A stretch of 64,000 nt of DNA from Trueperaceae bacterium (GTDB lineage Bacteria > Deinococcota > Deinococci > Deinococcales > Trueperaceae): assembly GCA_965215565.1 (NCBI GenBank), contig CBDCDZ010000004.1, forward strand, positions 1,728,001-1,792,000, in the 5' to 3' direction. The stretch's first letter is position 1, and each line of letters starts with the position of its first letter. Of the stretch, positions 32,905 through 36,346 are shown piece after piece. A model generated the notes under the pieces. The model made no database searches. It had not been told where the DNA came from and saw only the letters and a list, made by a program, of their open reading frames with translations. Position numbers and translations under genes: made by a program.

Positions 32905-32963
32905 AGCCTCATCTAGAAAGCCAGGACCTGCGCTGTTAGGCTGCTCGAGCCTAAAATTATGTT

Positions 32964-32993
32964 ATCCTTACTTTACAGAAGTGAGGTAAGGAT
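32964..32993. promoter_or_regulatory. Toxin-antitoxin autoregulatory operator
   Basis: ATCCTTAC-N14-GTAAGGAT inverted repeat running into the antitoxin start codon. Confidence 0.6.
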
Positions 32994-33225
32994 GAAGAAC
33001 ACTGCCACCATAACGAGCAAAGGACAGATAACGATTCCTCAAGAGGTGCGCCAACGCCTCGGGCTCAAACAGGGCGATAAAGTTACCTTTGAGGTTGAGA
33101 ACGGTCTCACGGTGCTCAAACCTTACAGGGGCGAAGCAAATCCCTTTGCGGCCTATGCAGGTGCATTAGGCAGCCTTGAAACTGAAGAAGAGGTGGGCGC
33201 TTGGCTGAGCGACTTACGCGAGTAG
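32992..33225 (+). CDS. AbrB/MazE/SpoVT family antitoxin
   Basis: ATITSKGQITIPQEVRQRLGLKQGDKVTF. Confidence 0.9.
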   Translation: MKNTATITSKGQITIPQEVRQRLGLKQGDKVTFEVENGLTVLKPYRGEANPFAAYAGALGSLETEEEVGAWLSDLRE

Positions 33226-33239
33226 GTGTCTAAGAACAG

Positions 33240-33665
33240 GTGCTTACAGCTATCGACACGAACATCATCAGCGCCCTCTGGTCACAAGAACCCGCCTCGG
33301 CAGGCGTCGCAGCGTCCCTCTTCGCTGCGCAGCAGCGAGGCGGACTCGTCATCTGCGCGGCTGTATACTGCGAACTCTTGGCATATCCGGGAGCGAGCAC
33401 GCCCTTCGTCCAGAAATTTTTAGACGACGCAGATATCCAAGTGCATTACGTTTTGAATGAGGCAGTATGGCGAGACGTAGGCGAGGCGTTTGCGGCGTAC
33501 GCGCAGCGCCGCAGAAGAGGTAAAGCCGGGCAGCCTAAACGTCTACTTGCAGATTTCATCGTTGGTGCTCACGCGCTTCACGCGGCAGACCGCTTACTTA
33601 CGTTGGACGTCAACCGCTATATCGCAAGCTTTCCAACCCTCGAGGTCATAGGACGAGAAACGTAA
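33240..33665 (+). CDS. PIN-domain VapC-type toxin
   Basis: AIDTNII, VYCEL, LADFIVGAHA, LLTLD acidic tetrad. Confidence 0.9.
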   Translation: MLTAIDTNIISALWSQEPASAGVAASLFAAQQRGGLVICAAVYCELLAYPGASTPFVQKFLDDADIQVHYVLNEAVWRDVGEAFAAYAQRRRRGKAGQPKRLLADFIVGAHALHAADRLLTLDVNRYIASFPTLEVIGRET

Positions 33666-33734
33666 ACCAAACGTAATCGCGGATGAAAAACTTCACGCCC
33701 CAACCTAGCACTGCAAGTGTTAGCATAAAAAACT

Positions 33735-34043
33735 GTGACGCTCCGCCTATTTTTCTTGACCATTTTAGTTCTCGCCTTGCCGCTCCCCGTACAACCTTGG
33801 AGCCTACCCAGCGGCGACGAGTCCTCGGGCATGAGCGCCCCCGTACCGATGGTGGCGGAACCTGCGCAGCGTCTCACGCTGCCAAGAGTCGGTAAAAGTA
33901 GCTTTCAGCTCTTACCCCCGCTTATCTCGAGCGTCACCGCCACAGTTTTCGCGGCTTATTTTATCTCTTCGACGTTCTGGGCGAGTACCGCGCAAAGGCG
34001 CACCTTTTTAGTGTTTGGGAAGCTGAGGCTCGAGGGGGGATAA
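33735..34043 (+). CDS. Secretory uORF of secDF, candidate translation-arrest (monitoring) peptide
   Basis: N-terminal hydrophobic signal, Pro/Ser-rich linker, C-terminus RRTFLVFGKLRLEGG*; 83 nt before secDF; 3' end complementary to RNA before the secDF SD. Confidence 0.6.
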   Translation: MTLRLFFLTILVLALPLPVQPWSLPSGDESSGMSAPVPMVAEPAQRLTLPRVGKSSFQLLPPLISSVTATVFAAYFISSTFWASTAQRRTFLVFGKLRLEGG

Positions 34044-34126
34044 AAGCTAAGACCTAACGGCTAATAGCCTATTCACCCAACCTCGAAACTCAAACCCTTT
34101 TAACCAAACAATTCAGGAGTAAGTAC

Positions 34127-36346
34127 ATGAATCAACGCTCATTCACGGGCATCCTCGTCCTTGGCGTGCTCTTAGCCGCCATTTTATACATGTGGCAGCC
34201 GTGGGCAGAGGACGCCTCGCTCAAGCTCGGCTTAGACTTGCAGGGCGGACTCCGCGTCGTGTTACAGTCCGACGACCCCAACCCCGTCCCCGAAGATTTG
34301 CAAGCCGCGCGGCGCGTGATTGAAAACCGCGTCAATGAATTCGGCGTGGCGGAGCCCGTCATCCAGACCTCAGGTGACAACCGCATCGTCGTGGAGCTTC
34401 CCGGCTTGACCGCCGAGGAGCAGAGCCGTGCGCAAGACCTCATCGGGCAGCAAGCGATTTTGGAGTTCCGCCTCGTCAGACCGGGCGCGAGCGAGCCTTT
34501 GACGCCCGATAAACTGCAACCGCCCGCCTTCACGGGTGAGGTGCTGCGCGGCGCGCAAGTCGCGTATGACCAGTTCGGACAGCCCATCGTGACCTTCCAA
34601 ATTCGCGGAGCTGACGCGCCTGCGTTCGGGCAATTTACGGGCAGCAACTTGGGTCAGCGCATGGCGGTTGTCTTGGACGGCAACGTCATCACCGCGCCGA
34701 ATATCAACGGGCGCATCGCAGAGAGTGGGCAGATCGAGGGGCAGTTCACGCTCGAGGAAGCCTCCGACTTAGCTCTCGTTCTCCGCTCAGGTAGCCTCCC
34801 CATCTCGCTCAACATCGAAGAGATTCGCGCCATCGGTCCAACACTGGGTCAAGACTCGGTTGCGGCGGGCACGACCGCCGCCATCATCGGCGGCATCGCG
34901 GTTGTCGCCGCTGTGATTCTCTACTACGGTCCGCTGTTCGGGGGCGTCTTGACCGTCGGTCTCATCTACGTGTTGCTGCTCATCTTCGGCATCTTGTCCG
35001 GTCTCGGCGCGGCGCTCACGCTGCCCGGTTTGGCGGGTCTCGTCCTGACCATCGGCGCGGCGGTAGACGGCAACGTCATCTCGTTCGAGCGCATCAAAGA
35101 GGAGCTGCGCGAAGGCAAGAGCTTGCGCCTCGCCATGCGGGGCGGCTTCGGCAACTCGCTCTCGGCGATCATCGACGCGAACGTCACGACGCTCTTGGCG
35201 GCGGCGGCGCTGTACCAGTATACCTCGGGTCCGGTGCGCGGCTTCGCCATCACGCTGGCGATCGGTATCGTCGCGGCGGTGTTTGTCAACACCGTCGTCG
35301 TGCCTTTTCTGCTCGACGTACTCACGGTGCGCTTCAAGAAGCCGTTTATGCCGAAAGGGTTCTACTTCGATAACCTCAAATTCGTTGGGCGTGCGCCTGT
35401 GGTGATGAGCATCTCGGGCGGGCTCGCGCTCTTAGCGCTCCTCATCGTGATTGTAAGCCCCTTAAATCTCTCGACGGACTTTACGGGCGGCACGAGTGCG
35501 CTCTACAGCGTCTCTGAAGAGACGACGATTGACGAGGTGCGCACCGCCATCAGCGAACTCGGCTTACCCGGCGTGGACGGCGGCTCGGCAACGGTGCAAG
35601 AGGTGCAAGACACGACAATCAGCACGGACGCCGCAGCAGCAGCGGGTACGGACAATGCTGAAGGAGAAGCGGCGGGCGCGAACAAGCTCCTCTCGGTGCG
35701 CATCGGTATCGGCGAGGACAGCGGCGCGAGAGGGGAGTTTCCTAACCTCTTAGCGGATCGGCTGAACGCGGAACTCTTACAAGCGGACTTCGTCGGACCC
35801 TCGGTAGGTGAAGACCTGCGCAACGGCGCGGTCTTGGCGGTGCTCGTCTCTTTAGGGCTGATTCTGCTCTACGTTGGGCTGCGCTTTTGGCCCAACTGGA
35901 TCGTCGCAGTCGCCGCGATTCTGGCGTCCATTCATGACGTCGGCATCGTGATGGGCTTTTTAGACCTCATCGGCGCGGAGTTCGGCGTGCCTGTTTTGGC
36001 GGCGCTCCTATTCGTCGTCGGTTACTCCTTGAACGACTCGATCATCATCGCGGACAGGATTCGCGAGAATTTGCGCAAGGTGCGCGGGCGTTCGTACAAT
36101 GACATCGTGGACCTCTCGGTGAGCCAGACGTTGTCGCGCACGGTGGTCACGTCCGGTACGACGCTCCTGCCCGTGTTGGCGCTCCTCTTCTTCGGCGGCA
36201 GCGTGCTGCGCGACTTTAGCATCACCCTCTTAGTGGGTATCGGCTTCGGGACGTACTCGAGCATCTTCATCCTCGCCCCGATGGTGGCGTGGTTCAAAAA
36301 GCGCCAGCGTAAACCTAAGGTGAACAGAAAGCCGAGCGCGGCGTAA
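34127..36346 (+). CDS. secDF: Protein translocase subunit SecDF (fused)
   Basis: LGLDLQGG, IENRVNEFGVAEP, IGPTLG, AVDGNV, DFTGG, GYSLNDSII. Confidence 0.97.
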   Translation: MNQRSFTGILVLGVLLAAILYMWQPWAEDASLKLGLDLQGGLRVVLQSDDPNPVPEDLQAARRVIENRVNEFGVAEPVIQTSGDNRIVVELPGLTAEEQSRAQDLIGQQAILEFRLVRPGASEPLTPDKLQPPAFTGEVLRGAQVAYDQFGQPIVTFQIRGADAPAFGQFTGSNLGQRMAVVLDGNVITAPNINGRIAESGQIEGQFTLEEASDLALVLRSGSLPISLNIEEIRAIGPTLGQDSVAAGTTAAIIGGIAVVAAVILYYGPLFGGVLTVGLIYVLLLIFGILSGLGAALTLPGLAGLVLTIGAAVDGNVISFERIKEELREGKSLRLAMRGGFGNSLSAIIDANVTTLLAAAALYQYTSGPVRGFAITLAIGIVAAVFVNTVVVPFLLDVLTVRFKKPFMPKGFYFDNLKFVGRAPVVMSISGGLALLALLIVIVSPLNLSTDFTGGTSALYSVSEETTIDEVRTAISELGLPGVDGGSATVQEVQDTTISTDAAAAAGTDNAEGEAAGANKLLSVRIGIGEDSGARGEFPNLLADRLNAELLQADFVGPSVGEDLRNGAVLAVLVSLGLILLYVGLRFWPNWIVAVAAILASIHDVGIVMGFLDLIGAEFGVPVLAALLFVVGYSLNDSIIIADRIRENLRKVRGRSYNDIVDLSVSQTLSRTVVTSGTTLLPVLALLFFGGSVLRDFSITLLVGIGFGTYSSIFILAPMVAWFKKRQRKPKVNRKPSAA

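Follow-up and report, generated by a model that had tools for sequence, protein, structure and literature searches.

What does the short open reading frame (ORF) directly ahead of secDF in a Trueperaceae bacterium encode, and could its translation control the secretion gene that follows it? We examined this question in a 64,000-nucleotide (nt) stretch of DNA, hereafter the window, which covers positions 1,728,001 to 1,792,000 of the forward strand of contig CBDCDZ010000004.1 (GenBank assembly GCA_965215565.1). An initial annotation had proposed that a 102-codon upstream ORF (uORF) in this window, ending RRTFLVFGKLRLEGG and separated by an 83-nt gap from secDF, encodes a translation-arrest peptide that monitors secretion, and on direct reading all of its coordinates are correct. 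We find that the uORF is a genuine gene in conserved synteny with secDF, and that its product has a shared architecture, with its C-terminus and the position of its stop codon under constraint at the protein level. The combined analysis leads us to favour, with modest confidence, the reading that the nascent peptide is regulatory and monitors Sec, and that it belongs to a family not described before, with members throughout the Deinococcus-Thermus phylum. The ORF downstream of it encodes a fused SecDF according to Pfam (SecD_SecF_C, E 2.6e-74; also SecDF_P1_head, SecD_1st and Sec_GG). The features of the locus are as follows, in window coordinates:

33724..33729, + strand: possible -10-like hexamer CATAAA, 5 nt before the GTG, proposed from sequence only
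33735..34043, + strand: uORF of 102 codons plus TAA, with a GTG start at 33735; unnamed peptide family preceding secDF
33735..33794, + strand: N-terminal hydrophobic segment, residues 1-20, signal-like by hydropathy
33828..33875, + strand: mid motif GMSAPVPMVAEPAQRL, family consensus G-M-x-A-P-x-P-x-x-x-E-x-x-x-R from alignments
33996..34040, + strand: C-terminal motif RRTFLVFGKLRLEGG, candidate arrest element, from the logo of 83 representatives
34041..34043, + strand: TAA stop immediately following Gly-Gly, which would be in the A site at the proposed stall, from the sequence
34012..34110, + strand: long imperfect hairpin of the last 10 uORF codons with the 3' part of the spacer, from folding (z about -3)
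34044..34126, + strand: 83-nt spacer, C 29% and G 12% by composition count
34115..34119, + strand: Shine-Dalgarno (SD) sequence AGGAG of secDF, from the sequence
34127..36346, + strand: fused secDF, 739 amino acids, ATG at 34127, from Pfam

Distribution and synteny

Full-length orthologues of the window peptide are present in both other genomes of its genus, at 78% and 72% identity. With 72-79% identity inside the genus, the peptide changes far more quickly than SecDF, for which genomes G000 and G002 (loci L001 and L003) are 95% identical over residues 1-440. Searching with the single peptide gave a weak match in another genus, before secDF, with a product ending ...GRLELEGG-stop. Profile A1 (4 sequences) found matches in 34 of 128 genomes of the same family at E ≤ 0.01; across the 363 genomes of the order, matches were found in 70 with profile A2 (29 sequences; E ≤ 0.01), 140 with A3 (48 sequences; E ≤ 0.001) and 187 with A6 (58 sequences; E ≤ 0.001), the last extending over five families. 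By coded family the A6 matches are divided into f1 62/127 (which takes in one genome flagged as unpublished, G110), f2 39/125, f3 22/23, f4 59/68 and f5 4/19, where f1, f2 and f4 appear to be the Trueperaceae, Deinococcaceae and Thermaceae, respectively. These counts are lower bounds, as no profile recovered G033 and those run by then did not recover G025; in both of these Deinococcaceae-type genomes a uORF ending ...LLGRRQ(T/S)DGG-stop was identified by eye before secDF. Matched genomes carry one match each, except G320, which has two. A profile search of 1.84 billion proteins produced 83 cluster representatives at E ≤ 0.001, and in nearly every case the match ran to the final residue of the protein.

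Genomic context was read for a subset of the matches, and 60 of the 62 loci inspected lie directly upstream of secDF on the same strand (29/30, 19/20 and 12/12). The two misses, L044 and L089, are unrelated frames that are not beside secDF and were dropped from alignments and counts. Neither A6 nor the codon count described below includes the three secDF-adjacent loci that do not end in Gly-Gly (L102, L103 and L108), and L112, a real member with no start codon assigned, was likewise dropped from alignments and counts. Five genomes without a match to the profiles run by then were searched for secDF, which was found in four, two of them with the uORF (the G025 and G033 cases above). In the Trueperaceae genome G007, secDF comes right after the infB stop with no uORF (L110, about 1495-1500), and in another member of this family, G057, an unrelated 66-residue frame stands in place of the uORF. 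The genus of G007 comprises 12 genomes, none with a profile match and one of them inspected, a natural loss that could be used for comparison. The initial annotation had suggested looking in relatives for a conserved uORF with a conserved C-terminus and a variable middle; such a uORF does precede secDF in five families, among them Trueperaceae, Thermaceae and Deinococcaceae. Databases list identical or clustered peptides as "hypothetical protein" for Thermus altitudinis, Thermus albus and Trueperaceae, and further records of this kind exist for Meiothermus, Thermaceae, Deinococcales and Deinococcus sp. The exact window peptide is absent from a collection of 15 billion proteins.

Peptide architecture and protein-level constraint

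Members of the family share four parts, namely a hydrophobic N-terminus, the mid motif, a variable spacer and a C-terminal motif of 13-16 residues. Hydropathy confirms the signal-like N-terminus that had been ascribed to the window peptide (Kyte-Doolittle 11-residue mean of 1.9-3.1 over residues 1-20), and all 48 aligned loci, together with 79 of the 83 representatives, have a hydrophobic N-terminal segment, usually preceded by K or R. Residues M33, E42 and R46 of the mid motif are at least 90% conserved (29 sequences). The spacer is rich in L, A, P, G and R and variable, with a mean column identity of 24-36%, and the distance from the hydrophobic segment to the C-terminal end is 74-88 residues (median 83; 48 loci). 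A second hydrophobic stretch is found in 19 of these 48 loci. The C-terminal logo of the 83 representatives reads R-R-x-(R/L)-L-x-x-(L/Y/F)-G-R-L-Q-L-(E/D)-G-G, with Gly at position -2 in all 83 and at -1 in 81, Asp or Glu at -3 in 82 and Leu at -4 in 69; the ending Gly-Gly-stop is shared by 81/83. No (R/Q/H)-(A/G)-P-P sequence occurs near the C-terminus of the window peptide or of any representative, in agreement with the earlier remark that a RAPP-type motif is lacking. AlphaFold2, run with 48 sequences, gave no globular fold (predicted local distance difference test score 66, predicted template modelling score 0.24), only helices at residues 2-14 and 66-99, the latter a single helix of low confidence.

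Among 58 loci ending in Gly-Gly, a count that excludes three members with other endings, the last six codons occur in 53 DNA versions that encode 18 peptides. Each of the four Gly codons occurs at both Gly positions, and the stop codon is TGA in 32 loci, TAG in 16 and TAA in 10, indicating that selection acts on the protein. In the same vein, a Thermus-genus locus differs from that of a strain approximately 3% divergent, known for this comparison from RNA-library contigs, by the loss of 1 nt and the gain of another some 5 nt away within the uORF, which together keep its frame.

Searches for a known family were negative. Pfam gave no match to the 48 members at E ≤ 1 apart from a single stray one (E 0.034), NCBIfam none beyond one match at E 0.14 over the hydrophobic N-terminus of a Thermus-genus member, and a protein atlas returned only unnamed clusters of other phyla with scores in the chance-prone range. 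The YajC profile (PF02699) matched 0 of the 48 members at E ≤ 1. Ubiquitin-like or Pup-like Gly-Gly tags and double-glycine bacteriocin leaders were also considered and rejected, given the export signal, the missing fold and the absence of any residue after Gly-Gly in the present family.

Proposed mechanism and coupling to secDF

Under the reading that we favour, the N-terminal signal would bring the nascent chain to the Sec translocon. By the end of the ORF the 13-16-residue C-terminal segment would occupy the upper exit tunnel, Gly-Gly would be at the peptidyl-transferase centre while the A site held the stop codon, and release of the peptide would be slowed or blocked. Active export would then pull on the spacer of about 83 residues and relieve the stall, while under poor export the ribosome would remain on the last codons and secDF expression would rise. 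The stall would probably take place at termination. Two forms of coupling can be envisaged: in this genus, the stall may melt the inner part of the hairpin formed by the last codons, or the stalled ribosome may deny Rho access to the C-rich, G-poor spacer, in the manner of the tna operon. The most specific version of this proposal, a new class of peptide that acts throughout the phylum, stalls at termination with Gly-Gly in the P site irrespective of the release factor (all three stop codons being in use) and is coupled to secDF by exclusion of Rho from the spacer in place of an SD-masking hairpin, is one that we put forward tentatively and regard as possible but on the doubtful side.

RNA that is rich in C and poor in G has the look of a Rho loading site. 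The C-over-G skew of the window spacer is 0.41, which places it in the top 0.9% of 553 co-directional gaps of 50-200 nt in the same genome, and C exceeds G in the spacers of 44/48 loci (mean skew 0.18 vs 0.03 for the uORF and 0.07 for secDF); Thermus-genus spacers show no skew (0.01-0.06). This composition suggests a Rho-type route in place of an SD hairpin. An attenuator based on an intrinsic terminator is unsupported, as a scan of 33500-34300 found no such terminator.

RNA structure

The initial annotation had further proposed a hairpin that pairs the last uORF codons with the spacer and occludes the SD of secDF. Its three nested pairings (TGTTTGG 34012-18 with CCAAACA 34104-10, TGAG 34024-27 with CTCA 34089-92 and TCGAGG 34030-35 with CCTCGA 34081-86) and the AGGAG are all present, and (A)GGAG lies 8-12 nt before the secDF start in most relatives. 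The minimum free energy fold of 33990-34135 shows the nested stem at -42.1 kcal/mol, against a mean of -31.9 kcal/mol for 200 dinucleotide shuffles (z -2.98, with 1/200 shuffles equally good; z -3.16 in a separate set of 100). An inner stem, formed by the L-R-L-E-G-G codons with CCC..CTCGAG..CTCAA of the spacer, is found in all three members of the genus, and the outer stem beside the SD (TGTTTGG/CCAAACA) in two of the three, the third having an altered 5' arm and approximately 250 extra nt between hairpin and secDF. The hairpin, although real, is confined to this lineage and is unlikely to serve as a switch; SD occlusion may nevertheless operate in some lineages, as judged from the models below. 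No Rfam 15 covariance model matched 33400-34400 at E ≤ 1.

Spacer length varies among these loci. The uORF-secDF spacer of L002 (genome G001; 1807-2147) measures 341 nt in place of 83-121 nt, its roughly 250 extra nt separating the conserved hairpin from the secDF SD, and spacers of 379-620 nt occur in another genus. A small stem-loop, GGCTAA(T/C)AGCC within CTAACGGCTAAYAGCC (34056-34069), is located in the loop of the hairpin in 3/3 genus members.

Points against the proposed feedback

A number of results weigh against the feedback as proposed, beginning with the RNA. In 42 loci, the stretch that begins 51 nt ahead of the uORF stop and takes in the first 9 nt of secDF was compared with shuffles and gave a mean z of -0.41, with 4 loci below -2 and 15 above 0, and the region is accordingly not unusually structured across the family. 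Conservation of the hairpin is limited to one genus, where only its inner part is common to all three members. These folding tests were confined to spacers of up to 200 nt, which left out L002, L027, L039, L041, L047 and L092. In thermodynamic models, from which all figures for ribosome binding site (RBS) opening and SD pairing derive, the mean cost of opening the RBS (-17 to +4) is 8.52 kcal/mol in free mRNA, 8.70 kcal/mol with a ribosome on the stop and 7.79 kcal/mol when the ribosome is moved 30 nt upstream of that position. Occupancy of the stop saves more than 1 kcal/mol in 6/42 loci only, and the window is not among them (4.87 vs 4.56 kcal/mol). Pairing of the SD to the final 30 nt of the uORF is predicted with P > 0.5 in 6/37 loci; for the window the probability is 0.00. 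RNAalifold paired the R-L-Q codons (GGCUCC) with the secDF SD in one genus (9 sequences, 8 pairs), a consensus pairing with 0 compensatory changes, and showed no uORF-SD link in another (8 sequences). Of the SD-occluding hairpin the fold itself stands within the genus (z about -3), but gating of the RBS is predicted neither for the window nor for most relatives.

The peptide contributes further points of this kind. Two members of genus g27 in family f5 end ...LLARFSRWNE-stop (L102) and ...LLARYGRWVL-stop (L103), and a Thermaceae member ends ...GRLQLEGC-stop (L108), so the terminal Gly-Gly is not absolute. All three retain the upstream part of the C-terminal motif in the absence of Gly-Gly. Crude six-frame ORFs of at least 150 amino acids from this genome, spurious ones included, show no depletion of EGG-stop or GG-stop endings (EGG 6, DGG 0 and GG 36 of 4245, against permuted control endings GEG 3, GGE 3, G.G 29 and GG. 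26, numbers too small to matter), which implies that the tripeptide alone cannot be strongly inhibitory. A simple Sec-monitor model has no need of the mid motif or of the narrow range of spacer lengths (74-88 residues), and published secDF-linked peptides have, unlike this family, widely varying spacers (Fujiwara et al., 2024; PMC10987492). Arrest, export-driven release and induction of secDF are steps that we infer, and in the case of arrest by analogy alone. Finally, none of 41 genomes of the order (G000 and 40 relatives) had a YajC (PF02699) match above the curated cut-off, a threshold passed by 7 of 14 control genomes; either the phylum is without YajC or its YajC is too divergent for the profile.

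Alternative explanations

That last result leaves room for an alternative in which the uORF product is a small exported or membrane-anchored accessory protein of SecDF with a YajC-like role, its C-terminal motif and free Gly-Gly carboxyl end acting in the mature protein and no programmed stall being involved. The gene occupies the place of yajC in other bacteria, and the product resembles YajC in its size (about 100-120 amino acids), its single N-terminal hydrophobic segment and its encoding beside secDF. The conserved mid motif and the tightly kept length suggest a function of the finished chain, with which the second hydrophobic stretch in a subset of loci would also be compatible. Unlike YajC, however, the family gives no match to the YajC profile even at E ≤ 1, and it lacks a confident fold, its variable spacer being rich in Pro, Ala, Arg and Gly and predicted with low confidence or no structure. 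With a median of 2-3 positive charges ahead of the hydrophobic segment, the chain is predicted to go outward, opposite to the topology of YajC, and a conservation peak over the last 13-16 residues and the stop position is the signature of peptides that act in the ribosomal tunnel. We consider such an accessory protein the main rival, though an unlikely one, while noting that a predicted complex of the SecD half (A7) with the peptide (A6) was uninformative for either reading (score 0.00, mark 0.32).

It is also conceivable, if rather improbable, that translation of the leader as such controls secDF through Rho polarity, mRNA stability or ribosome re-use, with no sequence-specific arrest and with the C-terminal motif conserved on other grounds. 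Such control would suit the positive spacer skew in 44/48 loci and the extreme rank of the window spacer, the unstructured character of the spacers in the shuffle comparison and the close succession of infB stop and uORF start in some genera. It leaves unexplained the peptide-level constraint over the last 13 codons and the export signal in 48/48 loci, and the Thermus-genus spacers, being without skew, do not fit it. A chance open frame with a chance fold might have been suspected from the missing SD before the GTG, the negative promoter scan and the absence of the exact peptide from the large protein collection, but synteny in five families and 187/363 genomes, the independent calling of the 83 representatives by other pipelines and a substitution pattern at the level of the protein refute this explanation and leave it almost no probability.

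Start of the uORF, transcription signals and neighbouring genes

No SD precedes the GTG of the uORF in the window, and a consensus promoter scan of 33500-34300 found none. The genus-mate G001 has CATAAT at the place of the window's CATAAA, and in further Trueperaceae loci (L030, L031, L036, L038, L046 and L092-L094) TAGAAT or TATCAT lies 7 nt ahead of the GTG that opens the uORF, an alternative ATG being absent in one of them. The closeness of these -10-like hexamers to the GTG suggests that the uORF mRNAs may be leaderless. Leaderless mRNAs are common in the Deinococcus-Thermus phylum, and such a start would explain the missing SD of the uORF. In other genera the uORF is close to infB: its start overlaps the infB stop in one Trueperaceae genus and comes a few bases after it in several Thermus-genus loci. 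For one Thermus-genus locus the end of infB, the uORF and the start of secDF are contained in single RNA-library contigs (4 runs from 4 studies), which cannot show a single transcript, its ends or pauses.

Upstream of the uORF, the window encodes an AbrB/MazE-type antitoxin (32959-33225; Pfam MazE_antitoxin, E 3.7e-14) and a PIN-domain protein (33240-33665; E 4.6e-8). The pair is also present in the genus-mate G002, and G001 has a different long ORF on the opposite strand there.

Relationship to known systems

Arrest peptides that monitor secretion have been described in Proteobacteria, Firmicutes, Actinobacteria and Bacteroidota. In TnaC-tnaA, the leader peptide stalls at its stop codon, and the C-rich spacer could be a Rho loading site under the stalled ribosome. 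What TnaC responds to is free tryptophan, and unlike the present family it lacks an export signal. No secretion-monitoring arrest peptide was found reported for Deinococcota in searchable papers and supplements, and no report of this peptide family in the searchable full-text literature, outside which most subscription journals lie.

The closest parallels are among the uORF peptides described before secA, secDF and yidC, of which three groups stall with a stop codon in the A site according to published toeprints (Fujiwara et al., 2024; PMC10987492). Like these groups, the present family combines a uORF before secDF or secA with an N-terminal localisation signal and a motif that abuts the stop. 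The motifs differ, being N-x-P-stop and D-G-M-K-stop in the published groups and x-L-(E/D)-G-G-stop here, with no C-terminal Pro; only the acidic-Gly pair resembles DGMK. The published stop-codon groups belong to Bacteroidota and Clostridia, whereas the present candidate family is from Deinococcota. Deinococcota do appear in the genome list of that study, with none among the arrest-peptide table entries listed, and the string LEGG occurs at least 10 times in the accessible arrest-peptide tables, three examined cases all falling in the downstream-gene column.

In VemP-secDF2 of Vibrio, ApdA/ApdP and uDF_RQH, a secreted uORF product also precedes secDF and is a proposed export sensor that induces it. 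These peptides stall during elongation, and the RQH/RAPP class ends (R/Q/H)-(A/G)-P-P, which is absent here. Their induction proceeds via an SD-masking stem-loop, shown for uDF_RQH_Enterobacterales (PMC10987492), whereas no conserved SD-masking stem is predicted in the present family. LudP of Lacrimispora, as described in a preprint (bioRxiv 10.64898/2026.10.26.761930), works through a short C-terminal element of 15 residues that is helical in the tunnel and in which one Asp is critical, and it resembles the present family in its gene position immediately before secDF, a C-terminal element of about 15 residues and an acidic residue near the end. LudP can also arrest at a stop codon, its natural arrest being at a sense codon; it is confined to one genus and no sequence relationship to the present family is evident. 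Neither Deinococcus nor Thermus is mentioned in the accessible parts of this preprint and of an EMBO J 2025 paper (PMC12992588).

Implications

Even without arrest, the uORF represents a gene that has no annotation and is closely linked to secDF, and this in a phylum in which no canonical YajC was found (41 genomes). If the proposed arrest is true, the Gly-Gly-stop family would be a new way of blocking peptide release, and since it has members in the genus Thermus, it would provide a stalled complex that occurs naturally on the ribosome on which high-resolution structural work relies most. The proposal is directly testable, as Thermus and Deinococcus have genetics and structures of Thermus ribosomes are solved routinely. 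It would also mean that feedback control of secDF has evolved again in an early-branching phylum.

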